DNA from: a virus | Taxonomy: Duplodnaviria; Heunggongvirae; Uroviricota; Caudoviricetes | Length of the DNA stretch: 45,678 nucleotides | Reading direction: 5' to 3' (one strand) | IMG/VR virus record: IMGVR_UViG_2663763326_000005 | In this document: positions 1 through 32,130 of the stretch, piece by piece | How the letters are laid out: the number at the start of each line of letters is the position of its first letter | Position numbering within the stretch: the first letter of the stretch is position 1 | Program-made: the position numbers and the translations under genes | Notes under the pieces: generated by a model | The model's input: the letters and a program-made list of their open reading frames with translations, nothing else | What the model was told of the DNA's origin: nothing | Database searches by the model: none

Positions 1-855
1 TGGCATTATTACTGGAGCCACTGCAGTTCACCTTTATGAGTCACGCACTGCTGATTTCACTGGTAGTTTCCATACCCTGTGCGCTGCTGTCGGTCTTTCT
101 GGTCCTGAAAGGTTGGGCACTGATGGGTGACGCGATGAGTCATGCGGTTTTTCCTGGCATCGTGCTTGCCTGGATTCTGGGGTTACCTTTGGCTACAGGG
201 GCATTCGTCGCCGGAGTATTCTGTGCGGTGGCGACGGGATACCTGAAAGACAACAGCCGAATCAAGCAAGATACAGTGATGGGGATTGTTTTTTTCTGGC
301 ATGTTTGCCGCAGGTCTGATCTTGTATATTGCAGTCAAACCAGACGTACATCTTGACCATATTCTTTTCGGCGACATGCTCGGGATAACCATCGGCGATA
401 TAATCCAGACGATGATTATTGCCGGGCTGGTTACACTTGTTATTAGCGTAAAATGGCGGGATTTTTTGCTGTTCAGCTTTGATTATCAACAGGCGCAGGT
501 AAGCGGTTTGCATACGAGATGGCTGCATTATGGGCTGCTGTGCATGGTCTCTCTGACCATTGTGGCGACGCTGAAAGCGGTAGGTATCATTCTCTCCATT
601 TCTCTGCTCATTGCGCCTGGCGCCATTGCGGTACTCCTGACACAACGCTTTCATATTGCGCTCCTACTGGCGACTGGCATATCGGTAATAGTGTCAATGA
701 CTGGTGTCTGGTTGTCCTTTTTTATCGACAGCGCACCAGCTCCGACGATTGTCGTCTTATTCGCGGTTTTGTTCATCATGACGTTTGCCGTTACCAGCAT
801 CAACGCACGCAAAAAGGGAAACTCCCATACACAGGATCTGTTATCACCCAATTAG
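1..855 (+). pseudogene. sitD: Mn/Fe ABC-transporter permease SitD-like gene, 5-prime end outside window; reading frame switches at a T7 run (289-295)
   Basis: ORFs 36..356 and 286..855 are in different frames but together read as one polytopic permease (ALLLEPLQF..MSHALLISLVVSIPCALLSVFLVLKGWALMGDAMSHAVFPGIV.. then ..SGMFAAGLILYIAVKPDVHLDHILFGDMLGITIGD..). The frame opens from base 3. The join is at gttttttt (289-295). Confidence 0.6.
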
Positions 856-946
856 CACAACATCCGAGGACAGCAACACCCGATACTTTTTCCTGGCTTC
901 CAGCAACGGGGTTTCTTCCTCCGTTGCATATACAGCTCACCTTTTT

Positions 947-1240
947 TCACCCACGATTAACCAACAGCCAGACCAGCAGACACGCCACCACCGGCACAGC
1001 AAAATCCATCAGGCTTGCCACATCCCAAGCTCGCGGATCAAAACCGCCCCACCACGGCATATTCATTCGCTTGCCATGCCCGAACATTTCAATCCAGCGA
1101 TATTCTGCCTGGGTATGTTCACGCGCAATGAAGAACGTACAACCGGCTATCGCTCCGTAAGCCCAGTTTCCGGTAAAAAGACCAACCAGTATCTGCGCAG
1201 CCACAGCACAAAGTGCATGAAGTAAGGGGCTTATATCCAT
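947..1240 (-). CDS. hypothetical small membrane protein (97 aa, about 3 predicted hydrophobic helices)
   Basis: ORF with hydrophobic segments LLHALCAVAAQILVGLFTG, AYGAIAGCTFFIA and LMDFAVPVVACLLVWLLV. Lies 12 bp downstream of the 92-aa ORF on the same strand. Confidence 0.4.
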   Translation of the reverse strand: MDISPLLHALCAVAAQILVGLFTGNWAYGAIAGCTFFIAREHTQAEYRWIEMFGHGKRMNMPWWGGFDPRAWDVASLMDFAVPVVACLLVWLLVNRG

Positions 1241-1252
1241 TATTTCCTCCTT

Positions 1253-1531
1253 TCAGCTCCATTCCCGAAGCGGTGTTTCCAGCTCCACGACATAATCAGA
1301 GAATACAGAAACATCAAACAAGTCATCAAGAATGCGAATGTTGACAAAATAACCGTCATTCCGGACACAGACAGGTTCTCCCTCTTCTGTTACCCCTGTT
1401 TCTGTGTAGGTGAAACCAATTTCATCGACTAACAGTTTATTCTGGAGGTCTTCATCCTCCTCCCAGTCAAGAGATGACAGGAAGGATTTAAACTCTCTGT
1501 TACCAGGAAATTTCAAAGTTAAATCTTTCAT
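1253..1531 (-). CDS. hypothetical small acidic protein (92 aa), start overlaps tail-fibre stop (ATGA)
   Basis: ORF rich in D/E (DWEEDEDLQNKLLVDEIGFTYTETGVTEEGEP). Its ATG at 1531 overlaps the stop of the upstream tail-fibre gene at 1528-1530. Confidence 0.4.
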   Translation of the reverse strand: MKDLTLKFPGNREFKSFLSSLDWEEDEDLQNKLLVDEIGFTYTETGVTEEGEPVCVRNDGYFVNIRILDDLFDVSVFSDYVVELETPLREWS

Positions 1532-3549
1532 ACTGCCTCCTTGATTTGCCTGTCATTTAATTCTTTAAACCAGACTCTGAAATTTCTGATGTGTCCAAAC
1601 AAATGACGCGTTCCTGCTGCGGTCTGCCCACCAAACCGGTACGATGTTGCTGTAACTCCAAATATTTTACCATTAAGGTTTGTTGTATAATTACCATTGC
1701 ATATTGCATTTACTGATAAATCAGATTTAGCTCTCACACCCACAATGAACCTTTCTCCATCTGAGGCAATTTGTGGCTGAACCATTCCTACGTTGGCGCT
1801 TATCTTTCCTGTTGCAACAAACCCCAGCGATAAATAATTATCATCAATACTGTGCCCTCCAACATCAAATATCCTTGGCGCAACATTGGGCGGTGTACTC
1901 CAGTTCCTGCTTACTTCGCACAATACCGTAAAAGGCCGTGTTGACAGGTTATTCTGCGATGGGATAGTAACTACATCACTTGCGCGTGTTGTTGGCATTG
2001 TAGTTACAATAAATGACGATGCCGTATTGCCCAGTTCAATTTGCGGCGTCGTCATGGTTAATGTTGAGTCATCATAGAATGTCTCATTACTTATTTTATT
2101 TGTCATATAAAAAGCACAGTTAACGGTATCAATGTCCGTATTAGCTGTATAAGTGGCCTCATAGTAGGTCCACTCGCCCTGTTGTTCAGCTTTGGCTGTT
2201 ATAAGGGATGTATTACCGCTTACTGTTGCGATCCGGGTATCCAGATCAAGATAAGAGTCAGCAGAGAAGGTATCTGTTCCACCAATAATAACTGAAACTC
2301 TTAACCTGCATCGTGCTTTAGCGCCTTTAACCCGGCACGAAAAAGTGAAACATTCACCACTTGCCAGCGGGAATCTGTCTGCTGCAACCACACCATGCAC
2401 AGTATAGCCACCTGTTGTTCCCACTATACTTTCCGTGGGTGTCACCGTGGCATAATTGAACCCCTGTTTATCAGTGCCAAATGTTTTATTCAGTGCGGAA
2501 TGAACAGTCCATGAGTCTGGTTTATTTGAGTTCCTCAGATAATTTGTCCTCTGTCCTTCAATCAATAAGCCATCGCGCTCAAATCGCGGTTCGTCAACTT
2601 CAGCAAGCTTGAGTTGGCCGGACTTATTAATATACGTTGCTGTTGAAGCACGTTTAAACTTAACAATCTTGTCGCCTGGCATTGTTATTTCATCGTCACC
2701 AATAACTATCTTTTTATAAGATGGCGAAAAACCCGTAATCATATCCAGTGAATCGTTAAACGGTATCCACACATCAGGCAGCGGCGGCACTATATTCGCA
2801 CAGGGCTCTGCAGTCACTTCCGCTGCGGCTTCTGCGCGGTCTGCCGCCTTTTCAGCTCGTGTCGCTGCCGACAGAGCCTCATCCTTTTTCTGCCCGGCCT
2901 TTGTTGCGTCTGCTGCGGCCTCCCGCGCTTTTGTGGTGGCGACTCCGGCATTTTCAGCGGCTGACTCTGCATTACGGCGGGAAGCCTCTTCACTGTCTGC
3001 GGAGGCTTCTTCTGACGCACGGGCATTTGTCTCTGAACGTTCTGCCGCTGTTGCTGCGTTTTGTGCGGCTGTTTTTGAAGAAGCTGCCGCTTTCGCGCTG
3101 TTACCTGCATTCGTCTCTGATGTTTTCGCCGCGTTCCTGGACGATGCCGCTGCTGTTTCTGATTTCTTTGCTGCCGCTGCGCTCTGAGAGGCGGCTTCAG
3201 CGTTGCGTGCCGCCTCTTCCACCATCTTTTCAAAACGATACAGTGCCTCCGGACAAACATCATCTTCTGTTGCAGCGCCCAGAAAATCATTCAATGTCCC
3301 CGGCTTAGAATCCTCATACACGGTGATGGTCCCGGCATGTGAAGGCGGAAAACCTTCAACCAGCAGGGCGACGCTGTACTGGCCATACTCAACATCCATG
3401 CTGTAACGTCCGGCTTCATCCGGATTTTCTGAGGCCACCGTGTTCACCACAACTGTGGTGCTGTTACGTTTTGCTTTGAGCTGAATGGTGCAGTTCTGTA
3501 TCGGTTTTCCTGCACCGTCTTTCAGCACACCTGAAATCTGTACTGCCAT
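1528..3549 (-). CDS. side tail fiber protein (Stf-like), about 673 aa
   Basis: N-terminus MAVQISGVLKDGAGKPIQNCTIQLKAKRNSTTVVVNTVASENPDEAGRYSMDVEYGQYSV matches the conserved N-terminal domain of lambdoid side tail fibers as I recall them, followed by an Ala/Ser/Thr-rich repetitive shaft. ATG at 3549 is preceded by GGAG; the ORF-track start at 3555 is a GTG. Confidence 0.75.
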   Translation of the reverse strand: MAVQISGVLKDGAGKPIQNCTIQLKAKRNSTTVVVNTVASENPDEAGRYSMDVEYGQYSVALLVEGFPPSHAGTITVYEDSKPGTLNDFLGAATEDDVCPEALYRFEKMVEEAARNAEAASQSAAAAKKSETAAASSRNAAKTSETNAGNSAKAAASSKTAAQNAATAAERSETNARASEEASADSEEASRRNAESAAENAGVATTKAREAAADATKAGQKKDEALSAATRAEKAADRAEAAAEVTAEPCANIVPPLPDVWIPFNDSLDMITGFSPSYKKIVIGDDEITMPGDKIVKFKRASTATYINKSGQLKLAEVDEPRFERDGLLIEGQRTNYLRNSNKPDSWTVHSALNKTFGTDKQGFNYATVTPTESIVGTTGGYTVHGVVAADRFPLASGECFTFSCRVKGAKARCRLRVSVIIGGTDTFSADSYLDLDTRIATVSGNTSLITAKAEQQGEWTYYEATYTANTDIDTVNCAFYMTNKISNETFYDDSTLTMTTPQIELGNTASSFIVTTMPTTRASDVVTIPSQNNLSTRPFTVLCEVSRNWSTPPNVAPRIFDVGGHSIDDNYLSLGFVATGKISANVGMVQPQIASDGERFIVGVRAKSDLSVNAICNGNYTTNLNGKIFGVTATSYRFGGQTAAGTRHLFGHIRNFRVWFKELNDRQIKEAV
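2810..3250 (-). repeat. low-complexity Ala-rich degenerate repeat region inside the tail-fibre gene
   Basis: Protein segment AARNAEAASQSAAAAKKSETAAASSRNAAKTSETNAGNSAKAAASSKTAAQNAATAAERSETNARASEEAS. It creates spurious long ORFs in other frames (2814..3290, 2859..3308, 2933..3187). Confidence 0.5.
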
Positions 3550-3560
3550 ATTCACTCCAC

Positions 3561-3588
3561 AAATAAAAAAGGCACCATTTCTGGTGCC
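3561..3588 (-). terminator. intrinsic terminator between J and the tail-fibre gene
   Basis: Minus strand reads GGCACCA-GAAA-TGGTGCC followed by TTTTTTATTT (plus-strand stem 3571-3577 / 3582-3588, A-run 3561-3570). Confidence 0.7.
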
Positions 3589-3607
3589 CGAATTTGGGTT
3601 TTAAAAT

Positions 3608-6600
3608 TCAACTGATACTGATGCCGGCTGTTGATTTCTTCATCACGACAACAAGAAGGTCGCTGATACTGGTCGTTGGCGTCCAGTTATTTGCACCATA
3701 TGAAGAAACATTGAAAGTCAGGGTGACATGGCCGTGTCCGGCAGGCATATCAATGACTGATGAAAATACCCTGCTGACATCCGTCGCGGGTTGCTGAAAG
3801 ATTTCCTGTCCGTTCTTCAGCACCTGCAGCTTACAGGTTGAATACCAGTATGACTGTTGGTTGTTGCTGTTGAAGTTTTCATGCTTACCACCGCGAAACA
3901 GAACGGGGGGGACGACTATCTGACGGTCAAAAGCCTGGTCATCGTACACAGTGACCGTTATTGTACCGCTGGCATAACTGCCATTTCTCGGAAAGGCTTT
4001 TCCCACCGTTTTGACAATATCACCTTCAATCTGGTTAGCTGACAGTTTTCCCAGAATCCGACAGTTCTGGTTAATCGTGACATTATTGAGCGTCCCGGAG
4101 TTCGCATTCACGTTACCGCTGATATCCGCATTTCTCGCAGAAAGTCGACCATCAGGTGTCAGTGAAAACGTTGGGGATTGCCACCGCTGGTAATGGTGGG
4201 AGCCGTCAGATATTTCAGGAACACTTCGTTCATGAATATCTGATCGCCCTGCCCAACAAACATCGGCTTTGTATTGCCATTCGCAGGATTAATCATCGCA
4301 ATCCTGTCCGCCGCCAGCAGCACCTGACTCTGCATACCGTCAGGGGTATTCTCAATACCGGCACCAATACCCGCGATATAAAGGCGTCCGTCCTGCATCT
4401 GCTGCAGCTTCACAGCCCACATGCTGTTCAGGTTATTATTTGTATCAACCTGAACCTTCTGTATCTGCTGGATCGCTGCACTCTGGTCTTCCAGTTTCTT
4501 ATTGACGGTCTGCGTGATTTCATTGCTGACATCCGTAATGGACGTCCTGATTTCAGCCAGGTCAGGCGCAAGCTGACCGTTATCAATCTGCGTCCACAAC
4601 TCCTGAGCCAGATGGGTTTTCCCTATCTCTCCTTTGAAAAAATCCAGATAGCCGGATGCATCATCACTCGGCTGGCCAACAGCCTCCACAAATGCCGATT
4701 TGCCAACGGTGTTCACACTGCGAATGTAAAAATAATAATCATGGCCCGGTTTGATATTGATACTGGCGGCTATCCAGTACAGCGCCGTACCAAGATAACG
4801 CGCGCTGGCTTCAACCTGCCTGATATCCGCAATCCGCTTTTCCGAGAACCAGAACTCAAACTGTACCGTCGGATCATAAACGGCAAGATGCGGCGTTGCG
4901 GTTATCTGAAAATAGCCCGGCGTCAGCTCAATCCGCGATGGCGCTGCCGGTGCGGCAATCCGGAACGATACCGACGCCGGATCCCCCTGCTGCCCCCACG
5001 CATTTACCGCCCGGACTGTCAGCCTGTAGTTCCCCAGCGCCAGTTGCCTGAAGCGGTATGTGGTTTCCGTCGTCCTGGCCGTGCTGACCAGCCGCTCACT
5101 GCCGTCATCCGCTGCCACGGTCAGGCGAAGCATAAAGCTCACCCCCTTCACCACCTTCGGTGTGTCCCATCGCGCCAGCACCTGATATTCCCCGCTGTCT
5201 GCGGTGACTTCTGCGGTCAGGTGCTGCACCGCGGGCGGCGTGACACCATTCACCGTGCCACTCTGTTCGCCGTCAAAGTGCGCCCCGTTATCCACGATGG
5301 TCTCTTTTTCCGGCACATGCTGCACGGCGGTGATGGCATACGTGCCGTCGTCGTTTTCACGGATACTCACGCAGCGGAACAGTCGCTGGCGCAGCGTCGG
5401 CAGCTTCAGCCCCATACGCTGTATTCAGCAACACCGTCAGGAACACGGCTCACTTTCACCTTCACGCCGTCGGTGACGGACTGAACCTCCACGCTGACCG
5501 GATTGCCACTTCCGTCAACCAGGCTTATCAGCGTGGTACCGGAGGATGGCAGCGTGATTTCACGGTCGAGCGTCAGCGTCCGGGTCTGGCTGTTCACCGC
5601 CAGCACACGACCACCGGTGCTGATACCGGCATAGTCATCATCGCAGATTTCAATGACATCCCCCGGTACATGGCGAAGCCCTTCAGCACCCACGCTGAAG
5701 TCCACGGTCTGCGTTTCCAGCAGCTCCGTTTTAATCAGCCACAGCCCGGCGCGGTGTGCCTGCCCCCGGCTGGTACAGCCAAAGGCATCCATCTTCGTGA
5801 CGTTACGGCCGTAACGGGCAATGGCCTGCGTATCCTCCACGAGCTCTGTCGCCGTCTCCCAGCCGTTATCCGGGTCAATCCAGTTCACCTCAACGGCATT
5901 ATGGCGGTCCTTCAGGGCGCTGAAGCTGTAGCGGAACGGCGCGCCATCATCCGGCATCACCACATTACTGCGGTTATAGGTCCACACCTTATCTGATGGT
6001 CGGTCCTGCACGAACGTCAGCGTCTGCCCGTTCCATACCGGCATACAGCGCATCGCCGAGCAGAAATCACTGAGCACATCCCACGCCTTGCGCTGTGTGG
6101 TCAGGTACGCATTACAGGTAATGCGCGGCTCCGTGCCGCCAAAGCCGTCCGGCACCGACTGGTCGCAGTACTGGCCGATGACATACAGCGCCCATTTATC
6201 CACATCCGCCGCACCAAGACGTTTCCCCATGCCGTAGCGCGGATGGGTCAGCATATCCCACAGACACCAGGCCATGTTGTTGCTGTATGCCGGTTTTAAC
6301 GTTCCGTCCCAGATACCGCTGTATTGCCGCGTCTGCGGGTTATAGTTCGACGGCACCTGCAGAATGCGCCCGCGAAGATGATAATTACGGCTCACCTGCT
6401 GGCTGCCGAACTGCTCCGAGTCCACCTGCACGCCAACCAGTGCCGTGTTCGGGTAGCACTGTTTCACATCGATGATTTCGGTGTATGACGACCAGAGCGT
6501 TTTGTTCAGCAGCTGGTCTGTGGTGCTGTCCGGCGTCATCCTGCGCATCCGGATATTAAACGGGCGCGGCGGCAGGTTATCCACCACCACCGAGGCCAGA

Positions 6601-7088
6601 TACTGCGAGGTGGTTTTGCCCTTAATGGTGATGTCTTTTTCCGTCACCCAGCCACCGTTACGCTGTATCTGAACCAGCAGGCGAACTTCCGACGGATTCC
6701 TGTCTCCCTTTGAGGTGGTTTCCACCAGTGCCTGTACACCGAAGGTAAAGCGCAGACGGTCGATGTTTGCCGACGTGATGGTCCGGGTGATCGGCGTGTC
6801 ATATTTCACTTCCGTACCCAGCACCGTCTCGGAGCCGGAGGATTCAAATCCCTCCGGCGGTGACTGCTCCTGCTCACCGGCCCGGAACACCACCGTGACG
6901 CCGGATATATTGGTATTCCCCTCACTGTCCAGCACCGGCGTACTGTTCAGCAGCACGCTTTTTAATCCATCCACCGGACCTTCAACCGGCCCTTCGCTGA
7001 TGGCATCGATCACACTCAGCAGCTGCGTGGACTTCAGGTTGTCCTTCGCTTCGCGCGGGGTATGCCCCTTACTGCTGCCTTTACCCAT
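3608..7088 (-). pseudogene. J: tail tip / host specificity protein J, reading frame interrupted twice
   Basis: ORFs 5406..7088 (MGKGSSKGHTPREAKDNLKSTQLLSVIDAISEGPVEGPVDGLKSVLLNSTPVLD...), 4159..5415 and 3608..4111 are consecutive segments of lambda J in three frames. Joins are at a C4 run (5410-5413) and a G4 run (4173-4176); adding one base at each restores a continuous J-like frame. Confidence 0.85.
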
Positions 7089-7148
7089 TCGTCATGCTCC
7101 ATAAACGATAAAACCGCCCGGAGGCGGTTTCACATAAAACGTTTTTCA

Positions 7149-7790
7149 TCAGCGACCAATCACCACAACCTGACCACCATCACCTTCATCTGCTGTGCTG
7201 ATCTCCTGAGATACCACACGTGATCCCACGCGCATTTCACCGTACAGAACGGGCAGAACATTGCCCTGGGCAACCATATTATCCAGTGAAGAAAAATAGG
7301 TGTTCTGTTTGCCGTTATCCGTTGTCTGTGTGCGGGGGGTTCTGGGTTTAGGGGCCAGCATCTGTGCAACACCGCCAAGCGTCATACTGGCACCGAGAGA
7401 AAACAGCAGATTACTCGCCATAATTCCTACCCCCGGCATCCATATAGCAACCGCCATAACAGCCGCCCCCAGCACAGCCTGAAACACACCGCCACTTTTG
7501 GCTCCTGCCAGACGCGGCACGATATGGATCACAGCACCATTTGCCAGCGGTTCATTAAGACGGGCTGATAATTCCGTTTCACCTGTATCACGCCCGGCAA
7601 TCCGTACCTGATACCAGCCGTCGCTCAGTTTCTGACGAAACGCCGGGAGCTGTGTGGCCAGCGCCCGGATGGCTTCAGCCCCCGTTTTCACACGAAGGTC
7701 GATGCGGCGGCCAAATCGTTGTAAATCCCCGTAAAGGCAGATGCGCGCCATGCCCGGTGACGCCAGAGGGAGTGTGTGCGTCGCTGCCAT
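7149..7790 (-). CDS. I: tail assembly protein I
   Basis: MAATHTLPLASPGMARICLYGDLQRFGRRIDLRVKTGAEAIRALATQLPAFRQKLSDGWYQVRIAGRD matches lambda I; overlaps K as in lambda. Confidence 0.9.
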   Translation of the reverse strand: MAATHTLPLASPGMARICLYGDLQRFGRRIDLRVKTGAEAIRALATQLPAFRQKLSDGWYQVRIAGRDTGETELSARLNEPLANGAVIHIVPRLAGAKSGGVFQAVLGAAVMAVAIWMPGVGIMASNLLFSLGASMTLGGVAQMLAPKPRTPRTQTTDNGKQNTYFSSLDNMVAQGNVLPVLYGEMRVGSRVVSQEISTADEGDGGQVVVIGR

Positions 7791-8431
7791 TTGTCGGTAT
7801 ACCTCTCTCGTTTGCTCAGTTGTTCAGGAATATGGTGCAGCAGCTCGCCATCACCACAGTAAATGGCGGCATGATTCGGCACCGATGAACCAAAACAGCA
7901 CAGCAGCACATCGCCCGGTTGTGCTGATGACAACGGCACCTGATACAGCCCTGTGGCCTCCAGATTATCCAGATAGAGATTCTGACCGTGACGCCACCAG
8001 TCATCCCCGCGATGAAAATCCGGCATCTCAATCCCCGCCAGATGATAAGCATCCCGGAACAGCGTGTAACAGTCCGTCACCCCGTGCTCAAAGCACCGCC
8101 CGGTAAGATGCGGCACACAGCGGAATTTATGAATCTCACCCCGGCAGACCAGCCACCACGGCAAATCGCTCTGCACCTGCAGCCGCCTGTCAGCCTCACT
8201 CAGCCAGGGCAGACCACCGGGGTGGCTGTGGACCAGCGCCACAATCTCACCCTGCATCTCTGCCCGCAGCCAGTCCTCCGGCGACATCCGGAAATACGCC
8301 TCCGGCTCACCGGAGATATTCACGCAGGGAAAATATCTTTCCCCCTTCGGCGTTCTCACCACGAAGCCACACGACTCCGCTGGCGCACATCGCCGGGCGT
8401 GCGCCAGAATCGCTGATTCTGTCTGTGTCAT
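7688..8431 (-). CDS. K: tail assembly protein K
   Basis: From internal Met, MTQTESAILAHARRCAPAESCGFVV.. matches lambda K; the longer ORF-track start at 8473 is probably an upstream extension. Confidence 0.85.
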   Translation of the reverse strand: MTQTESAILAHARRCAPAESCGFVVRTPKGERYFPCVNISGEPEAYFRMSPEDWLRAEMQGEIVALVHSHPGGLPWLSEADRRLQVQSDLPWWLVCRGEIHKFRCVPHLTGRCFEHGVTDCYTLFRDAYHLAGIEMPDFHRGDDWWRHGQNLYLDNLEATGLYQVPLSSAQPGDVLLCCFGSSVPNHAAIYCGDGELLHHIPEQLSKRERYTDKWQRRTHSLWRHRAWRASAFTGIYNDLAAASTFV

Positions 8432-8435
8432 GGGA

Positions 8436-9134
8436 TTACTGCGAAAGTTTGTTAATGGAAAGGAAGCCGCCAAAGTTGCCGACGTTATTGCGGAACTTAC
8501 AACCGCTCAGGCATTTGCTGCATTTATCCTTCGTGATATCGGACGTTGGCTGGTCATATTCATCCGCGACAGCCGGACCGCTATAACCGCACTCGTCACC
8601 GCGATAGGTCCAGGTGCAGGTGTTGGCCAGCATGATACGTCCCGGAAAAACAGCGCCATCCGTTTCCGTCGGCGTGGACAGTACAAAGGAGGCACTCACC
8701 GCGCTCAGTTCGCTGCACTGCTCAATGCGCCAGCGGCTGATCACCTCCTGCTCCGGATCGGCATAACTGTTTCCGTTGACGAAGTTCACCGCATCCAGAA
8801 AACGGGCGTAAACCTTACGCCGGACCACCGTTCCGCCGACCAGACTCTGCAGATCTTCCGCCATCCCGGTGACCATACCGTACAGGTTAGAAACCGTCAG
8901 CGTGGGGCGCGTACTGGTGCCTTTGCCATTCAGTTCAAAACCGCTCCCCTGAATGGGATACGGCTGATACTGTCGCCCCTGCCAGGTGACCGGCTCACCT
9001 TTTTCGTTCTGCTCATTACAGAAAAAATAACGTTCTCCACCGACCTCTGTCAGGTCGATTTCCCAGAGCACCACGCTGGCCGACTGCTCCGCACGGGTGC
9101 ATTCATTCAGTGTTTCCTGCCGGATATCCTGCAT
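8436..9134 (-). CDS. L: minor tail protein L
   Basis: MQDIRQETLNECTRAEQSASVVLWEIDLTEVGGERYFFCNEQNEKGEPVTWQGRQYQPYPIQGSGFELNGKG; 232 aa as lambda L. Confidence 0.9.
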   Translation of the reverse strand: MQDIRQETLNECTRAEQSASVVLWEIDLTEVGGERYFFCNEQNEKGEPVTWQGRQYQPYPIQGSGFELNGKGTSTRPTLTVSNLYGMVTGMAEDLQSLVGGTVVRRKVYARFLDAVNFVNGNSYADPEQEVISRWRIEQCSELSAVSASFVLSTPTETDGAVFPGRIMLANTCTWTYRGDECGYSGPAVADEYDQPTSDITKDKCSKCLSGCKFRNNVGNFGGFLSINKLSQ

Positions 9135-9463
9135 CAGTTCACCACCTGTTCAAACTCTGCGCTGAACTCAACACGCAGCATACTGACCCGCGACGACCAT
9201 TTTGCGCAGGTCACCTTTATCTGCTGCCACTCATAAGGCGGCGTCCACAGAAAGGATTTCCAGCCCCCGTGCTCTTCCAGAAACGACTCCAGTACCGTGG
9301 CCTCCTCACGGGGGACAGAAAGCGTCACGCTGTACGTTTTCAGGTTGGCATTCAGCCCGGCAGGCGCTCGCTGAGAATAGCCATCACCAAAGCGCACCTT
9401 TCTTACAGAAGGGACCGAAGCCACATCCATACCGGGTTTCACTTTCCAGCGGAAGGTCTTCAT
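9134..9463 (-). CDS. M: minor tail protein M
   Basis: MKTFRWKVKPGMDVASVPSVRKVRFGDGYSQRAPAGLNANLKTYSV; 109 aa as lambda M. Confidence 0.9.
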   Translation of the reverse strand: MKTFRWKVKPGMDVASVPSVRKVRFGDGYSQRAPAGLNANLKTYSVTLSVPREEATVLESFLEEHGGWKSFLWTPPYEWQQIKVTCAKWSSRVSMLRVEFSAEFEQVVN

Positions 9464-12021
9464 CGTCCACCTCCGGAGAACAGGCCACCATCACGCATCT
9501 GTGTCTGAATTTCATCACGGGCACCCTTGCGGGCCATGTCATACACCGCCTTCAGAGCAGCCGGACCTATCTGCCCGTTCGTGCCGTCGTTGTTAATCAC
9601 CACATGGTTATTCTGCTCAAACGTCCCGGACGCCTGCGACCGGCTGTCTGCCATGCTGCCCGGTGTACCGACATAACCGCCGGTGGCATAGCCGCGCATC
9701 AGCCGGTAAAGATTCCCCACGCCAATCCGGCTGGTTGCCTCCTTCGTGAAGACAAACTCACCACGGTGAACAATCCCCGCTGGCTCATATTTGCCGCCGG
9801 TTCCCGTAAATCCTCCGGTTGCAAAATGGAATTTCGCCGCAGCGGCCTGAATGGCTGTACCGCCTGACGCGGATGCGCCGCCACCAACAGCCCCGCCAAT
9901 GGCGCTGCCGATACTCCCGACAATCCCCACCATTGCCTGCTTAAGCAGAATTTCTGTCATCATGGACAGCACGGAACGGGTGAAGCTGCGCCAGTTCTGC
10001 TCACTGCCGGTCAGCATCGCCGCCATATTCTGTGCAATACCATCAAAGGTCTGCGTGGCTGCACTTTTTACCTGCGACATACTGTCCGTGGCGCTCTCTT
10101 CCCACTCACTCCAGCCGGACTTCAGGCCTGCCATCCAGTTCCCGCGAAGCTGGTCTTCAGCCGCCCAGGTCTTTTTCTGCTCTGACATGACGTTATTCAG
10201 CGCCAGCGGATTATCGCCATACTGTTCCTTCAGGCGCTGTTCCGTGGCTTCCCGTTCTGCCTGCCGGTCAGTCAGCCCCCGGCTTTTCGCATCAATGGCG
10301 GCCCGTTTTGCCCGTTGCTGCTGTGCGAATTTATCCGCCTGCTGCGCCAGCGCGTTCAGGCGCTCCTGATACGTAACCTTGTCGCCAAGTGCAGCCAGCT
10401 GGCGTTTGTACTCCAGCGTCTCATCTTTATGCGCCAGCAGGGATTTCTCCTGTACAGACAGCTGGCGACGTTGCGCCGCCTCCTCCAGTACCGCGAACTG
10501 ACTCTCCGCCTTCCACAAATCCCGGCGCTGCTGGCTGATTTTCTCATTTGCTCCGGCATGCTTCTCCAGCGTCCGGAGTTCAGCCTGAAGCGTCAGCAGG
10601 GCAGCATGAGCACTGTCTTCCTGACGATCGCCCGCAGACACCTTCACGCCGGACTGCTTCGGCTTTTTCAGTGTCGTTTCATAGTCCTTTTTCGCTGCCG
10701 CCATCAGCGTGTTGTAATCTGCCTGCAGGATTTTTCCGTCTTTCAGGGCCTTATTCAGTTCTTCCTGACGGGCGGCATATTTCTCCAGCGGCGTCTGCAG
10801 CCGTTCGTAAGCCTTCTGCGCCTCTTCGGTATATTTCAGCCGTGACGCTTCGGTATCGCTCTGCTGCTGCGCATTTTTGTCCTGTTGACTCTGCTGTTCA
10901 GCCTTCTTTCGGGCGGCTTCAAGCGCAAGACGGGCCTTTTCACGATCATCCCAGTAACGCGCCCGCGCTTCATCGTTAACAAAATAATCATCCTTGCGCA
11001 GATTCCAGATGTCGTCTGCTTTCTTAAACGCAGCCTCTGCCTTAATCAGCATCTCCTGCGCGGTATCAGGACGACCAATATCCAGCACCGCATCCCACAT
11101 GGATTTGAATGCCCGCGCAGTCCTGTCTGCCCAGGTCTCCAGCGTGCCCATGTTCTCTTTCAGGCGGCGGGTCTGGTCATCAAACCCTTTCGTTGCGGCC
11201 TCGTTCGCCGCCTGCAATGCCCCGGCTTCATCGCCGGAACGCTGCAACTGAGCAACATACGCAATCTGCTCCGCCGTCACGTTATGGAACTGGCGTGCCA
11301 TCGCCGTCAGCCCCGACGTCGGGTCTGTGGTCAGCTTCCCGAAGGCTTCAGCGACCTTGTCCACCTCCACGCCGGATGCAGAGGAGAAACGCGCCACACT
11401 CTGGCTGATGGACGCAATCTGAGCCTCACCGCTTACCCCCGCCTTAACCAGTGCGCTGAGTGACTCGCTGGTCTGGTTAAACGTCAGCCCTGCCGCCTGC
11501 CCGGCTCTGGACAGGACCAGCATACGATCTGCCGTCAGACCCGCCTGATTGCCGGAAAGGACCAGCGTTTTGTTGAAATCGGACAGGGTTGAGTTGCCCT
11601 GATACCAGGCATACGCCAGCGCACCGGTCGCCACCGCCAGCGAGGTGGCCCCCACCATCGGCAGGGTGATCGCACCGGCAAGCCCCCTGAACATGGGGAT
11701 CATCCCGCCGAAGGAGTCCTTCACCTGCCCCCCCTGTTGCAGCAGGATCAGCCACGGACTTTGCCCGCCTGCAAGCTGCGTGGCCACGTCGGTGAACTGT
11801 GCAGGCAGCATACGCATGGCGGCTTTATACTGCCCGACGGAAATCCCCGCTTTCTGTGCAGCCAGCGCCTGTCGGCTCAGCGACTGTTCAACGACTGCCG
11901 CTGTTTTTTTCGCATCACTTTCCGTACCGGAAAAATGACGCCTGACTCTGGCCATCTGCTCGTCAAATCTGGCCGCATCCAGACTCAAATCAACGACCAG
12001 ATCGCCTACCGGTTCAGCCAT
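9460..12021 (-). CDS. H: tail tape measure protein H
   Basis: 853-aa ORF, MAEPVGDLVVDLSLDAARFDEQMARVRRHF.., same length and sequence character as lambda H. Confidence 0.9.
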   Translation of the reverse strand: MAEPVGDLVVDLSLDAARFDEQMARVRRHFSGTESDAKKTAAVVEQSLSRQALAAQKAGISVGQYKAAMRMLPAQFTDVATQLAGGQSPWLILLQQGGQVKDSFGGMIPMFRGLAGAITLPMVGATSLAVATGALAYAWYQGNSTLSDFNKTLVLSGNQAGLTADRMLVLSRAGQAAGLTFNQTSESLSALVKAGVSGEAQIASISQSVARFSSASGVEVDKVAEAFGKLTTDPTSGLTAMARQFHNVTAEQIAYVAQLQRSGDEAGALQAANEAATKGFDDQTRRLKENMGTLETWADRTARAFKSMWDAVLDIGRPDTAQEMLIKAEAAFKKADDIWNLRKDDYFVNDEARARYWDDREKARLALEAARKKAEQQSQQDKNAQQQSDTEASRLKYTEEAQKAYERLQTPLEKYAARQEELNKALKDGKILQADYNTLMAAAKKDYETTLKKPKQSGVKVSAGDRQEDSAHAALLTLQAELRTLEKHAGANEKISQQRRDLWKAESQFAVLEEAAQRRQLSVQEKSLLAHKDETLEYKRQLAALGDKVTYQERLNALAQQADKFAQQQRAKRAAIDAKSRGLTDRQAEREATEQRLKEQYGDNPLALNNVMSEQKKTWAAEDQLRGNWMAGLKSGWSEWEESATDSMSQVKSAATQTFDGIAQNMAAMLTGSEQNWRSFTRSVLSMMTEILLKQAMVGIVGSIGSAIGGAVGGGASASGGTAIQAAAAKFHFATGGFTGTGGKYEPAGIVHRGEFVFTKEATSRIGVGNLYRLMRGYATGGYVGTPGSMADSRSQASGTFEQNNHVVINNDGTNGQIGPAALKAVYDMARKGARDEIQTQMRDGGLFSGGGR

Positions 12022-12448
12022 ACCGGACTCCTCCTGCGATCCCTTCTGATACTGTCATCAGCATTACGTCATCCTCCGTCATGTCCGCCACATCCGGGGA
12101 AGCGGGGATAACTTCATTCCCGTCCGGGCCAAAGCGGACACCTCCGGCAAGCCCTGCCGCTTTCTGCATCAGCACATCATCTTCAGGCTCTTCGTCAGCC
12201 TCGCGCCGGTTCAGCAGACTGAAATCCAGCGGATGCATATCCGGATCGCTGAAAAACAGGCTGAGCACGGTGTACGTCAGCCCGGAAAAGTGCATATCCA
12301 GCAGAACATCATGAAAATAATGGGTACTGTAAAAGCGGTGCCAGTCGGCATACTCCGTGGATGACATCCCGGCAAGCATGGCACGCCAGTCGGGTCGCCC
12401 CATCTCACGCGCCAGTTTCAGGGCAAAACTCAGCTCACCGTCGAACAC
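12014..12448 (-). CDS. T: T portion of the tail assembly chaperone G-T fusion (reached by -1 frameshift from G)
   Basis: ORF in the -1 frame relative to G starting at the slippery site; FDGELSFALKLAREMGRPDWRAMLAGMSSTEYADW.. matches lambda gpT. Confidence 0.8.
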   Translation of the reverse strand: MFDGELSFALKLAREMGRPDWRAMLAGMSSTEYADWHRFYSTHYFHDVLLDMHFSGLTYTVLSLFFSDPDMHPLDFSLLNRREADEEPEDDVLMQKAAGLAGGVRFGPDGNEVIPASPDVADMTEDDVMLMTVSEGIAGGVRYG

Positions 12449-12852
12449 TTTCCCGCAGAAACAGGCTCTGCAGGCCCGGCGTCCTCTGCCTGTTCGGGGG
12501 CATTATTCACCACAAACTCATACATACCGGACAGCCGGTACACCACGTTTTCAGCATGAGAAATTGCCTCTGTGGGCCAGGTGGTAAGCACTTCCTGCTC
12601 AATCTGTTTAACGGCTTCATTCATGGACGGCATCTGCGTCTTCTTCGGATGGTTATGCCACAGGGACATCGCCACCAGAAACGCGCCGGTTCTGATGACG
12701 TCTTCCACAGTAACCTGCCGGTTGCTGTCGGATCCCGCCGGTTCTGCCTGCCGTTTCATCAGGGCAAGATGCTCAATACGCTGCAGGGCTGACAGTTCAG
12801 AAAGCGTGACGGTCACGCCGTTATATTCAAATGATTCGGTTTTCAGGAACAT
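12430..12852 (-). CDS. G: tail assembly chaperone G
   Basis: MFLKTESFEYNGVTVTLSELSALQRIEHLALMKRQAEPAGSDSNRQVTVEDVIRTGAFLVAMSLWHNHPKK; 140 aa as lambda G. Confidence 0.9.
   Translation of the reverse strand: MFLKTESFEYNGVTVTLSELSALQRIEHLALMKRQAEPAGSDSNRQVTVEDVIRTGAFLVAMSLWHNHPKKTQMPSMNEAVKQIEQEVLTTWPTEAISHAENVVYRLSGMYEFVVNNAPEQAEDAGPAEPVSAGKCSTVS
12448..12454 (-). other. programmed -1 ribosomal frameshift slippery heptamer G GGA AAG (G to G-T)
   Basis: Minus strand GGGAAAG (reverse complement of plus ctttccc, 12448-12454) sits near the end of G. Translation in the -1 frame from it gives ..GKVFDGELSF.., the start of the T ORF. Confidence 0.75.
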
Positions 12853-12867
12853 CGCTGACTCTCCGGA

Positions 12868-13608
12868 TTAACTGGCGGTGACGGTGATTTCTGCAACCGC
12901 AGCAAACTCACCATTACCGGATACAACCGGAATGTTGACCTTGCCTGCAGCAACGCCGTTCACGGTGATGGTCATACCGCTGACCGACACGGTGGCTTTT
13001 GTTTTATCCGCAGACACCGCACGGAAGCTCTTGTCGGTTGCGCCCTCCGGCTGGAATGCCACGGTCAGCGTAGTGCTCTGCCCTTTCACTACGGAAGCAC
13101 TGGCGGGTGTCACCGTCATGCCGGTTGTCGCCGTCACCGTGCTGCGATCTTCTGCCATCGACGGACGTCCCACGTTGGTGACTTTCACCGTGCGGGTGAT
13201 CACTTCCTTCGCCGTCACCGCCTTACCGATACTGCTGACCCAGCCGCGGAACACATCGACCGTGCCGTTCGGGAAGCGGATTTTATAGGCACGGGTATCC
13301 CCTTCATTAAACCACGCCAGCAGCGCCTGCTGCCCCTGCTCTCCGGGCATCCACGCCAGCGTGAAGCTGGTATCTCCGGCAGATTTCTGCCCCTGCCCGG
13401 TCGCAGTCCAGTCCGCATCTTCATCATCGAGATAGCTGTCGTCATAGGACTCAGCGCTCAGTTCGCCGGGCGTCAGGTCTTTAACTTTAGCCAGACGCGA
13501 CCAGTCAACGTCTGAAAGCGGGTTCGCATAAGGGTCACCGTTCCCCTTATAAACCCACAGGGTGGTCCCGGCCCCTTTCACCGGCATTACTGGATTTGGT
13601 ACAGGCAT
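12868..13608 (-). CDS. V: major tail protein V
   Basis: From internal Met, [50 protein letters not shown].. matches lambda V, including a C-terminal Ig-like extension. Confidence 0.9.
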
Positions 13609-13615
13609 ATCGTCC

Positions 13616-14011
13616 TCACATTTCATAGGTAATGACATAAGTCAGATCGGCTGAACTCCACAGGCCCGCATCATCGTCGCGCCGGTAGTCATAGCCACTG
13701 GCCACCATACTGGTGATCAAATCTGACAGTGCCGGGACATCGCTCATCACCGGATAAATCCGGGACTCCATCCACGAATCCAGCTCTGAATCCGGCACCT
13801 GAGCAGGCAGGAAAACTTCAATATGCAGCTCCGCCTGCCAGGTATCGCTGTCCAGCTCTTCGCCCGTGTATTCAGCGCCGGTGAGATAAACGGCAACTGC
13901 CGGAAAATCCTCCTCATCAAAAACAGCGGGGCGACCATCAAAAAGCGTCGCCCCGGTGTCATGTTTTTCCAGTGCATCCAGTACGGCTGCACGGAGTTCT
14001 GTATGTTTCAT
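13616..14011 (-). CDS. U: tail terminator protein U
   Basis: [54 protein letters not shown]; 131 aa as lambda U. Confidence 0.9.
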
Positions 14012-14585
14012 CGCTTTATTACCATCCTCAGTTGATGCTGCAGCGCATAGCCCAGCTCTTTCGGAAGACGTTCACGCCGTATCCGCTCAATATTCTGTTT
14101 AAACGCCGTGGTCAGCGGCACTGCCATCGGGATTTTCACCACATCAATGGGGTAACGGTTTTTCCCGGCCACACGCTGCATGACATGCCATCGGCCATTT
14201 TTCAGTTGCTGAATAAACGCGCCGGGAATACGACGGTTTCCCACCACAAGCACGCTGTCGCCACCTTTCAGGGATGAACGCTGCCCCTTTTTACGACGCC
14301 TGCGTCGGGACAGGACAACCCGCGCGTTACCCAGCCTGATTACGGGCAAATCCCCCGGTTAACCTTGATTCTGGCCTGCGGATTTTTGACCGTGGCCCTT
14401 TTCAGCCTGGCCCTTTCCTTTACCAGTTTCCGGCGTACCTTTGTCTCACGGGCAACCTGTGACGCCGACTGCGATATCGCGGATGAAGCAACGCGGTTAA
14501 TGGCCATTGCGGCGGCACCGGGCACCGCCGTTCTGCTGATACGGCTGAGGTTTTCAACGGCCTGCTCAAGACCTTTTATGGCCAT
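14008..14585 (-). pseudogene. Z: tail completion protein Z, reading frame interrupted once
   Basis: ORF 14340..14585 (MAIKGLEQAVENLSRISRTAVPGAAAMAINRVASSAISQSASQVARETKVRRK..KVNRG) and ORF 14008..14349 (..VIRLGNARVVLSRRRRRKKGQRSSLKGG..) are the N- and C-terminal parts of lambda Z in different frames. The join is at a C5/G5 run (14352-14356). Confidence 0.85.
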
Positions 14586-14596
14586 ACATCCCCCCT

Positions 14597-28541: not shown

Positions 28542-29573
28542 ATGAAAATTAACAAGATATTATCATCTGCAACACTATTGTATGGTATGTCAATGGCCAT
28601 GTCGGTCGGGAGTTGTGCAACACCTGTCCAGACTAATCTTCCTGGTTACACCCCGGGTGCAGATATCATTAGTGTTTCACCGACCAGAAACCAGGTCGAT
28701 CTCATTGGTGATGTTGTTTATTCCCAGATAAAAGGAACTCGTTCTGTCAGACAGCTTCACATGTCAGTTCTTGTCCCGCGAACAAATGATTTAAAACCAG
28801 CCATTATTTATTATCCCGGCGGCGGATTCATGTCTTCTGAACATGACAAATTTATTGAAATGAGAATGGCTCTGGCAGAAGCTGGTTTTGTTGTGGCCGC
28901 TGTAGAATACAGAACAATTCCTGATACATTTCCAGCACCAGTTGAGGATGGAAAAGCTGCAATACGTTACCTGAGAGAGCATGCCAGCAATTATGGGATT
29001 GATCCTCAAAGAATCGGAGTTCTGGGTGACTCTGCCGGTGGATGGCTTGCCCAGATGATGGGAACTACAAATGGTGACAAAACCTTTGATAAAGGTGACT
29101 TTCTTCAGCAATCCTCAGATGTTCAGGCAGTTGCCACACTTTATGGGATTTCTGACTTGTTGAATATTGGCGAGGGGTTCCCTGAATCAGTGCAGGAGGT
29201 TCATCGCTCTCCTGCCGTAACCGAAGCCTTAATGATCAATGGCCCTGCATTCAGAAATTTTGCGGGAGCCCCCATCACAGCGTCAAAAGAAAAAGCGCTA
29301 AACGCCAGTCCAATCGGACATATGAAAGGAGTAAAACCCCCATTTCTTATTATGCATGGTAGCAAAGACACTCTGGTTTCACCTGAGCAAAGCGCCAAAC
29401 TATTCAGGATGTTGAAGAAGAACGGTGATAACGCTGAGTACGTGCTGGTAGAAGGGGCCGAGCATGGCGATAAGACATGGTATCAGCCAATTATTATAAA
29501 CAGAGTCGTTGAGTGGTTTACTAAAAACCTGGGAGCGCCTATAAAAACAGCTCCCCAACAACAAAACCCGTAA
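28542..29573 (+). CDS. secreted alpha/beta-hydrolase (esterase/lipase-like), 3-prime end clipped by IS insertion
   Basis: Signal-peptide-like N-terminus MKINKILSSATLLYGMSMAMSVGSCA; oxyanion-hole-like YYPGGGF; nucleophile-elbow-like GDSAGG; later H/D candidates (HGSKDT, AEHGD). The stop TAA (29571-29573) lies inside the IS66 left end. Confidence 0.7.
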   Translation: MKINKILSSATLLYGMSMAMSVGSCATPVQTNLPGYTPGADIISVSPTRNQVDLIGDVVYSQIKGTRSVRQLHMSVLVPRTNDLKPAIIYYPGGGFMSSEHDKFIEMRMALAEAGFVVAAVEYRTIPDTFPAPVEDGKAAIRYLREHASNYGIDPQRIGVLGDSAGGWLAQMMGTTNGDKTFDKGDFLQQSSDVQAVATLYGISDLLNIGEGFPESVQEVHRSPAVTEALMINGPAFRNFAGAPITASKEKALNASPIGHMKGVKPPFLIMHGSKDTLVSPEQSAKLFRMLKKNGDNAEYVLVEGAEHGDKTWYQPIIINRVVEWFTKNLGAPIKTAPQQQNP

Positions 29574-29599
29574 GCGTCAACGGAGCACCGTATTGACGC

Positions 29600-31213
29600 T
29601 TATTTATTGGTGAGTACTACGTTCCATGGCAGGAGTTCGTCAACTCGGTTGGAAGGCCATTCCGGCAGTACGCTCAGGATATGGCGCAGATACGCTTCCG
29701 GATCGATACCGTTCAGACGGCAGGTGCCGATCAGCCCGTACAACAGTGCTCCACGCTCGCCGCCGTGATCGCTGCCAAAGAACATAAAGTTTTTCTTTCC
29801 GAGACAGACTGCACGAAGCGCTCTTTCCGCAGCATTATTATCCGCCTCCGCCAGACCGTCATCACTGTAATAACAGAGGGCATCCCACTGATTCAGTACA
29901 TAGCTGAACGCTTCGCCCAGTCTGGATTTTTTCGACAGCGTACCATTCTTCTCCACCATCCATTCATGCAGCGACGTCAGTAACACTTTGCTTCGCTGCT
30001 GCCTGACGGCAAGACGCTCTGACTCCGGTAATCCCCGTATTTCATCCTCGATGGCGTACAGTTCACTGATTCGCTTCAGGGCTTCTTCTGCCGTCGCACT
30101 TTTGCTGCTGATGTATACATCGTGGATTTTTCGCCGGGCATGGGCCCAGCACGCAACTTCTGTCAGTGCACCACCTTCACGTTCTGCACTGAACAACCTG
30201 TCGTAACCTGTGAACGCATCCGCCTGCAGGATACCCCGGAAGGGGCGGAGGTGTTGCTCCGGGTGTTTCCCCTGCCGGTTCGGCGAGTACGCGAACCAGA
30301 CCGCTGGAGGAGATGACGAACCCACATTGCGATCATCCCGGACATACGTCCAGATACGCCCTGTTTTCGCCTTTTTCTGACCCGGTGCCAGTACCTTTAC
30401 CGGTGTGTCATCAGTGTGAACCTTGCGGGTGTTCATTACATAACGGTACAGGGCATCATTCACCGGTGTCATTAACTGGCAGCACGCGTCAACCCAGTTG
30501 GAGAGTAAGGCCCGGCTCAGTTCGACACCCTGGCGGGCAAAGATTTCACTCTGACGATACAGTGGCAGATGTTCGCAGTATTTTCCCGTTAACACGCGGG
30601 CAAGTAATCCGGGGCCCGCGATACCACGCTCTATCGGGCGGGACGGCGCCGGTGCTTCAACAATACAGTCACATTTTGTACAGGCTTTTTTTACCCGTTC
30701 TGTGCGGATCACTTTCAGGGCACTGCTCACCAGTTCCAGCTGTTCAGCGCTGACTTCCCCCAGATAATCCAGCTCACCGCCACACTCCGGGCAACAGCTT
30801 TCTTCTGGCTCCAGGCGGTGTATTTCACGGGGAAGGTGTGCCGGTAACGGACGACGATGGCGCGACTGTCGCAACTGGCGGGGAACCTGAGGATCGTCTT
30901 CCCGCCCACTGTAACGATCGCTGTCCTGTTCACGTTGTTTCAGCAGAGCCTCAGCCAGTTCAACTTCACGACGCAGTTTTTCAGAACGGGTACCGAACAG
31001 CATCCGGCGCAGTTTTTCTATCTGAGCCCGCAGATGTTCTATTTCCCGTTCATCTTCTTCGATCTTTTCTTCGGCACGTGTCAGTGCAGAGCGCAGGAAG
31101 GCTTCCGTCTCTTCAACCAGACTCAGTTGCTGGTCTTTCTGACGGAGGGCTTCAGCCTGCTCAGAGAGCAACCTTTCCAGCTCTGCGATGCGAATGAGGT
31201 ATTTCTGACTCAT
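29600..31213 (-). CDS. IS66-family transposase (TnpC/Orf3)
   Basis: 537-aa ORF with N-terminal coiled-coil/leucine-zipper-like region, Cys cluster (CPECGGEL, CTKCDC) and DDE-type core typical of IS66 transposases. Confidence 0.85.
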   Translation of the reverse strand: MSQKYLIRIAELERLLSEQAEALRQKDQQLSLVEETEAFLRSALTRAEEKIEEDEREIEHLRAQIEKLRRMLFGTRSEKLRREVELAEALLKQREQDSDRYSGREDDPQVPRQLRQSRHRRPLPAHLPREIHRLEPEESCCPECGGELDYLGEVSAEQLELVSSALKVIRTERVKKACTKCDCIVEAPAPSRPIERGIAGPGLLARVLTGKYCEHLPLYRQSEIFARQGVELSRALLSNWVDACCQLMTPVNDALYRYVMNTRKVHTDDTPVKVLAPGQKKAKTGRIWTYVRDDRNVGSSSPPAVWFAYSPNRQGKHPEQHLRPFRGILQADAFTGYDRLFSAEREGGALTEVACWAHARRKIHDVYISSKSATAEEALKRISELYAIEDEIRGLPESERLAVRQQRSKVLLTSLHEWMVEKNGTLSKKSRLGEAFSYVLNQWDALCYYSDDGLAEADNNAAERALRAVCLGKKNFMFFGSDHGGERGALLYGLIGTCRLNGIDPEAYLRHILSVLPEWPSNRVDELLPWNVVLTNK

Positions 31214-31243
31214 GACCGTTTTTATAATGCGGTCAGGAGTTTT

Positions 31244-31594
31244 TTACAACATTGTCAGTGAGTTACGGCTGGATGTTTTTGGCTGACGCCAGTCCAGCTT
31301 ATCGAGGAGCATTGCCAGTTGCGAGCGGGTAATGGATACCTTGCCGTCACGTACCGCAGGCCAGATAAACTGGCCTTCCTCCAGGCGTTTGGTGAACAGG
31401 CACAGACCATCAGCATCAGCCCAAAGAATTTTGACGGTGTCACCCCGTCGGCCACGGAAGATAAACAGGTGACCGGAGAAGGGATTATCATTCAGCACAT
31501 GTTGTACCTGTTCTCCCAGTCCGTTGAAGGATTTACGCATATCGGTAACGCCGGCAACGAGCCAGATACGGGTACCTGATGGGAGTGAGATCAT
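31244..31594 (-). CDS. IS66-family accessory protein TnpB (Orf2)
   Basis: MISLPSGTRIWLVAGVTDMRKSFNGLGEQVQHVLNDNPFSGHLFIFRGRRGDTVKILWADADGLCLFTKRLEEGQFIWP; typical IS66 Orf2. Confidence 0.85.
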   Translation of the reverse strand: MISLPSGTRIWLVAGVTDMRKSFNGLGEQVQHVLNDNPFSGHLFIFRGRRGDTVKILWADADGLCLFTKRLEEGQFIWPAVRDGKVSITRSQLAMLLDKLDWRQPKTSSRNSLTML

Positions 31595-32016
31595 CTTCCC
31601 CTCCCGGTCAGTTCACGGATCAACACTGTGAGCAGCTCTGGCGATGGATTTTCCAGCGTCATGTTACCGTGACGGAATTCCACCTTGCAGGAACTGGCAC
31701 TGACTCTGGTCTGAGTGGAAGTGGATAAAGACGGCGCAATGGCCGCCACAGGTTCTTTCTGCTCATCCGGCGTTATTTCTACAGGTAATAATTCAACGCC
31801 AGTGTCAGAAGAGGTCGTTACCGGAAGACGCCGCGAAACACGCCCTTCGTTCTGCCAGAGCCTGAGCCATTTGAAAATAACATTATCATTGACGCCATTT
31901 TCACGTGCAATCTGTGCAACACAAGCTCCAGGTTGTGATGCCAGTTCCACCATACGAAGTTTGAATTCATTCGAATAGTTTTTACGAGGTTCTTTTCGCC
32001 AGTCCTGTAATTCCAT
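31591..32016 (-). CDS. IS66-family accessory protein TnpA (Orf1)
   Basis: 141-aa ORF with HTH-like segment (ASQPGACVAQIARENGVNDNVIFKWLRLW); overlaps TnpB start (ATGA). Confidence 0.8.
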   Translation of the reverse strand: MELQDWRKEPRKNYSNEFKLRMVELASQPGACVAQIARENGVNDNVIFKWLRLWQNEGRVSRRLPVTTSSDTGVELLPVEITPDEQKEPVAAIAPSLSTSTQTRVSASSCKVEFRHGNMTLENPSPELLTVLIRELTGRGR

Positions 32017-32130
32017 ACTTAGATGTCCGTCTATATCAGATGGGCGTCTAAGTTACCAATTCTCGTCTGATGGCTACATACGGCGGTCAGTTTACGCTTA
32101 CCAAAACCCAAACGCTAACCTGTAAAAAGA

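Follow-up and report, generated by a model that had tools for sequence, protein, structure and literature searches.

A probable consensus error in a homopolymer run splits the tail completion gene Z of a lambda-type prophage of Escherichia coli ST131

Introduction

Is the tail completion gene Z of this prophage truly broken, or has a base been lost from the written sequence only? The stretch of DNA analysed here, which we call the window (45,678 nt), holds a lambda-type prophage of E. coli ST131 located between sitD and icd, with its late genes on the minus strand. Z is positioned between the head-tail joining gene FII and the tail terminator gene U, in the gene order FII-Z-U-V-G/T-H of the lambda-type late operon. 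In the window it is divided over two reading frames, and the division falls on a homopolymer run. Below we describe the break and its repair, compare the window with related genomes, and weigh sequencing error against real mutation and against recoding.

Results

Gene Z is split at a five-base run

The following features describe the Z locus, with the evidence for each in brackets:

14008..14585, minus strand: gene Z (lambda gpZ, tail completion protein), interrupted (ORFs, PF06763 matches, one-base repair and synteny)
14340..14585, minus strand: N-terminal Z piece of 81 aa, MAIKGLEQ...KVNRGICP* (ORF list and PF06763)
14008..14349, minus strand: C-terminal Z piece of 113 aa in the -1 frame, its start listed as TTG (ORF list and PF06763)
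14352..14356, no strand assigned: C5 run on the plus strand, G5 on the coding strand, the site of the frameshift (letters, alignment and allele counts)

The locus is 578 nt long, where 579 nt would be expected. On the plus strand the sequence around the break reads ...GGGCAAATCCCCCGGTTAACC..., with the five C at exactly 14352-14356, which are five G on the coding minus strand. The frame of the 81-aa piece terminates at a TAA 10 nt beyond the G5 run. The -1 frame of the 113-aa piece is open only from the TAA within GTTAAC, just 5' of the run.

Both pieces match the Minor_tail_Z family (Pfam: PF06763) far above its curated cut-off of 23.9 bits. The 81-aa piece scores 100.6 bits over profile positions 1-76 of 190 and the 113-aa piece scores 158.8 bits over positions 79-190 of 190. 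Because the coverage of the profile ends at 76 in one piece and resumes at 79 in the other, the two pieces abut.

In the window as written there is no uninterrupted Z ORF of about 192 aa; inserting one C after position 14356 produces a single ORF of 192 aa. The repaired protein is identical to WP_000985120.1, the intact Z of E. coli Ecol_AZ146, and shares 189 of 192 residues with lambda gpZ. The lambda gene carries G6 at nt 230-235, in the codons CGG GGG GAT, so that the run in the window is one base below the G6 of lambda and of nearly all relatives. Lambda gpZ and the repaired Z are alike in their 192 aa, in gene order and in the G6 codons, whereas as written lambda gpZ is intact and the Z of the window is broken by G5 into 81 and 113 aa.

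A preliminary description of this DNA, made from the letters alone, had placed the N-terminal 81 aa and the C-terminal 113 aa in different frames joined at 14352-14356, and the ORF list, the abutting profile matches and the position of the C5 run all agree with it. It had also proposed that one extra base restores the peptide as in lambda. This held for the ORF and for its overall likeness to lambda, but not for the exact peptide, which after repair reads ...KVNRGDLPVIRLGNARV... with an R (...PVIRLG...), where lambda has a K (...PVIKLGNARV).

Four one-base indels and no substitution

The window was aligned over its full length with the copy of this prophage in E. coli Ecol_AZ146 (NZ_CP018991.1). 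Over the 45,678 nt there are 0 substitutions and exactly four 1-nt indels. All four are located in homopolymers which are 5-6 nt long in Ecol_AZ146; relative to it the window has lost a base at three of these sites and gained one at the fourth, and all but one of the sites are G/C runs. The window contains 196 runs of at least 5 nt, which make up 2.3% of its sequence. At Z, the C5 of the window on the plus strand (14352-14356) stands against C6 in Ecol_AZ146. The other three indels, each known from alignment and allele count, are frameshifts of the same class:

289..295, plus strand: T7 run in sitD, T6 in relatives
4173..4176, minus strand: run in J, G4 on the plus strand, G5 in relatives
5410..5413, minus strand: run in J, C4 on the plus strand, C5 in relatives

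The homopolymer pattern that the preliminary description had reported for J and sitD as well as for Z is therefore present at every one of these runs.

The gene sitD, of a host iron/manganese transporter, occupies positions 1-855 on the plus strand, and the window begins 4 nt inside it. Its N-terminal frame stops at 354-356 through the T7 run. The tail-tip gene J (3608-7088, minus strand) is read in three frames through two separate one-base deletions in G5/C5 runs.

Positions 20679-45678 of the window are 100% identical to dozens of ST131 genomes, and therefore the true divergence is near zero. No gap-free match to positions 1-25000 was found among the RefSeq complete E. coli genomes. Published mutation-accumulation work in E. 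coli finds real indels to be about ten times rarer than substitutions. With divergence so close to zero, four real indels without a single substitution are therefore very unlikely; an assumed mean of 0.1 would give them, as an illustration, a Poisson probability of about 4e-6.

All four indels lie within the first 14.4 kb (positions 1-14356), which hold only 63 of the 196 runs of at least 5 nt (p ~0.01). Such clustering might reflect locally low read depth or a failure of polishing.

The alleles are rare or absent elsewhere

To count alleles we matched 61-nt queries, each centred on one of the runs, against 5,426 RefSeq complete E. coli genomes and took an exact match as the allele of the window. 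The counts are lower bounds, as for example G5 is detected only in an identical 61-nt context. The T7 allele of sitD was found in 0 of 2,248 genomes and the G4 allele of J in 0 of 762, while the C4 allele of J occurs in at most 1 of 3,570. The G5 allele of Z is present in 4 of the 2,086 genomes with a match, leaving 2,082 (99.8%) without the shortened allele. A collection of 153 billion gene positions has no entry for the 560-aa fragment of J that results from the C4 frameshift. The alleles which the window carries in sitD, J and Z are private or nearly private.

Outside the complete genomes, G5 of Z was found in 0 of 27 records of isolated phages, 0 of 29 IMG/VR contigs and 0 of 120 metagenome contigs, many of which have SPAdes-style names. 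All 176 of these phage, IMG/VR and metagenome sequences have G6, with a single Z ORF wherever the run was read directly.

Genomes and contigs that share the G5 allele

A small number of other public assemblies also have the G5 allele of Z, with the gene annotated as 'frameshifted'. The four RefSeq genomes are uk_P46212 (CP013658), Ecol_542 (CP018970), CREC-544 (CP024826) and A22 (CP028753), and their Z genes, called frameshifted by PGAP, are identical to the window across 61 nt centred on G5. The accession range CP013658-CP028753 presumably dates to 2015-2018. All four G5 carriers fall in this range, against only about 8 in an even sample of 60 matching genomes (p ~3e-4).

In A22, a possum isolate, the 24 kb that surround Z (NZ_CP028753.1, 2675138-2699198) hold 29 prophage genes, of which 11 are annotated as 'frameshifted'. 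A22 is an example of a RefSeq 'complete genome' whose assembly has many frameshift calls. In the other three carriers (Ecol_542, uk_P46212 and CREC-544) no frameshift besides that of Z is annotated in the prophage region compared, and in Ecol_542 and uk_P46212 the Z indel is the only difference from Ecol_AZ146 besides insertion sequences. These lone frameshifts show some site preference. Regarding the sequencing of the carriers, uk_P46212 was assembled from PacBio reads (PMC4807372) and CREC-544, of ST457, was sequenced with PacBio RSII only (PMC5884925). Ecol_542 belongs to a PacBio assembly series which, according to its paper, was checked against Illumina reads (10.1101/111914).

The carriers differ from the window in other respects. 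Ecol_542 and uk_P46212 lack the sitD and J indels of the window and also lack the insertion sequence ISEc23, which is present in the window and in G6 genomes such as Ecol_AZ146. The prophages of CREC-544 and A22 are about 2-3% diverged from that of the window. The G5 state is polyphyletic, as indicated by the pattern of ISEc23, by the ST457 background of CREC-544 and by the possum origin of A22.

The identical 81-aa product is encoded on at least 34 contigs, with sources including Logan and ENA. Among the matches listed, all ten other contigs coding for it have 11-95 indel columns per 12-20 kb, often at the same A/T and G/C runs, and most of them have the terminase, portal, protease, tape-measure and J genes in pieces. 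The product is also listed in 37 blocks of contigs shorter than 20 kb, some of which may be short-read assemblies.

Control runs

As a control, the nearby C6 run in the spacer between FII and Z (14590-14595) was artificially shortened by one base. This shortened allele occurs in 5 of 3,236 genomes at an identity of at least 99%. Four full-length exact matches are listed, with accessions from CP013831 to CP029420 (again the 2015-2018 range), and none of them belongs to the set with G5 in Z. As the C6 control behaves alike, the Z run is not special and resembles other G/C runs of its length. In a second control, in which G7 of the tape-measure gene was shortened to G6, the allele was found in ten genomes, mostly of O157:H7, several with accessions later than 2015-2018. 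This tape-measure control indicates that part of the homopolymer variation among lambdoid prophages may be real.

Two simple accounts of why Z is affected were discarded. The run is not the sole long G/C run of the prophage, which has seven G/C runs of at least 6 nt. A multi-copy region that resists short-read polishing is unsupported for Z, since most ST131 genomes listed carry one copy of it. The gene sitD is found on many plasmids, and at that site an error may have survived in this way.

Other features of the prophage

Positions 29570-32101 are occupied by an insertion of ISEc23 (IS66 family), and the 8-bp target sequence CAAAACCC is duplicated on its two sides (29562-29569 and 32102-32109). 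The insertion, which is present in Ecol_AZ146 and many ST131 genomes, cuts off the end of an alpha/beta hydrolase gene. An inverse autotransporter gene of 4,266 nt (32162-36427, minus strand) is carried as a moron within the prophage and has internal tandem repeats of about 357 nt (self-matches at 34056-35118, 98% identity).

Of the side tail-fibre (stf-like) genes at about 1500-3550 on the minus strand only remnants are left. Identical DNA in Ecol_AZ146, Ecol_542 and uk_P46212 is annotated as two partial pseudogenes, an N-terminal and a C-terminal fragment. Because the stf-like genes are remnants, the prophage may already be defective in its tail fibres, whatever the state of Z.

Discussion

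A probable consensus error

We think that the Z frameshift is probably an error of the assembly consensus, a one-base undercall of a G6 homopolymer, and not a change in the DNA of the bacterium; judging from the sequence comparisons we give this a probability of roughly 85%. Long-read or flow-based sequencing would have undercalled G6 as G5 in Z, and the same process would have produced the other three homopolymer changes, one in sitD and two in J. The real gene is then most likely an intact homologue of the 192-aa gpZ, as in nearly all copies of this ST131 prophage, and we infer that the reads or the DNA of the window's isolate would carry G6.

Three observations which mark an artefact come together at this locus: the changes are of 1 nt and confined to homopolymers, the alleles are absent or rare elsewhere, and error-prone assemblies are associated with them. 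The window resembles the homopolymer errors left by long-read and flow-based platforms (PacBio RSII, Nanopore, 454 and Ion Torrent) in that every difference from its nearest relative is a 1-nt change in a run of 5 nt or more. What the genomes compared show directly is how the window differs from its relatives, how often each allele occurs and that G5 goes with long-read assemblies; G5 of Z recurs in assemblies that are documented as PacBio or rich in frameshifts, as a homopolymer artefact would. The density of indels in the window, 4 in 45.7 kb, is far below that of the worst assemblies, which have 27-95 indel columns per 17-20 kb. The problem of homopolymer length implied for Z in the preliminary description is supported by the four homopolymer indels without substitution, the rare alleles and the long-read association, and its view that ribosomal slippage is unlikely here finds support in the recoding features that were looked for in the region and not found, which are set out below.

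A possible real deletion

The most serious alternative is that replication slippage in G6 truly removed one base and that Z is a pseudogene in a decaying or domesticating prophage. G/C homopolymers are natural hot spots of indels and slippage, and this prophage already has truncated tail-fibre genes and the ISEc23 insertion, so that the host would lose nothing if Z were truly gone. The allele occurs in four RefSeq genomes in which PGAP calls a frameshifted pseudogene. Ecol_542 keeps G5 despite its reported Illumina check and the allele could be real there, in two ST131 genomes the Z indel is all that separates the prophage from that of Ecol_AZ146 besides insertion sequences, and it is the sole annotated frameshift in CREC-544. 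The spread of the 81-aa product over at least 34 contigs, from Logan and ENA among other sources, points the same way.

However, a real deletion in Z would have to be accepted together with three further indels and no substitution over 45.7 kb, one of which breaks the host transporter gene sitD that is intact in 2,248 of 2,248 genomes compared. Three of the four indel alleles are private or nearly private, and G5 is absent from the phage, IMG/VR and metagenome collections. The complete genomes with G5 are all from the 2015-2018 accession range and are PacBio assemblies or assemblies with many frameshifts, and the listed contigs with G5 carry many further indels. On this balance we regard a real deletion as unlikely, though it deserves more weight than any of the readings that follow. 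If the deletion was real then, together with the two frameshifts in J, the prophage could no longer build infectious tails; lambda particles defective in Z are largely non-infectious.

A stronger form of this idea is that the G6 of Z, which lies beside the palindrome GGTTAACC, would be a recurrent slippage hot spot through which tail completion has been switched off independently in ST131, in ST457 and in the possum isolate. We consider this very improbable. If it were true, prophages could be domesticated cheaply in this way, and low-level -1 slippage on GGG might rescue part of the lost function.

It is scarcely credible that the isolate was a mutator strain deficient in mismatch repair, in which four real and recent homopolymer indels had arisen. 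Mutators do gather homopolymer indels fast and all four changes are of that type, but mutators accumulate transitions even more than homopolymer indels and there is no transition in 45.7 kb; moreover, four events per 45 kb would amount to several hundred frameshifts per genome. Z does not resemble a phase-variable contingency locus, as its tract is 6 nt long, where at least 8 nt is typical, and 99.8% of the matching RefSeq genomes are without the short allele.

Recoding

Finally, the two frames could be joined during expression, by a programmed -1 ribosomal slip or by transcriptional slippage on G5. The two frames overlap by only about 20 nt around the run. Any -1 slip would have to fall on the run itself, and re-pairing one base back is conceivable for a tRNA-Gly that reads GGG. 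For G/GT this operon possesses a genuine programmed -1 site, the canonical lambda slippery sequence GGGAAAG at 12454-12448 on the minus strand, at the end of gene G (12430-12852), which illustrates the form of an actual recoding site. Like the Z break, the G/GT frameshift of lambda concerns a tail gene of this operon in which two frames overlap, but G/GT has a slippery heptamer and the Z site is without heptamer, conservation or structure signal.

In the zero frame the run reads AAC CGG GGG ATT TGC CCG TAA, and no X_XXY_YYZ heptamer was found there. The RNA downstream has a minimum free energy of -37.7 kcal/mol compared with a shuffle mean of -39.9 (z = +0.60), which gives no stimulatory structure. 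Neither is the layout in two frames conserved, as G5 is absent in lambda, in 2,082 of 2,086 RefSeq genomes, in 27 of 27 phages and in 149 of 149 IMG/VR and metagenome contigs. For transcriptional slippage, efficient slipping of the polymerase needs a longer run than five G. Lacking a slippery heptamer, a structure signal and a conserved two-frame layout, recoding of Z was rejected, and we hold it to be extremely unlikely.

Implications

The main value of the finding is in quality control. Anyone taking the frameshifts at face value would count sitD among the pseudogenes and class the prophage as tail-defective. If the deletion in Z is real after all, it would still be an ordinary inactivating mutation of a prophage, of a kind that PGAP already annotates. 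If, as we believe, the break is a consensus error, then all three genes, Z, J and sitD, are best regarded as intact, and any further homopolymer frameshift in the same assembly deserves distrust. A reading at face value would distort the calls of prophage intactness, the counts of pseudogenes and the iron/manganese transport capacity attributed to this ST131 genome.
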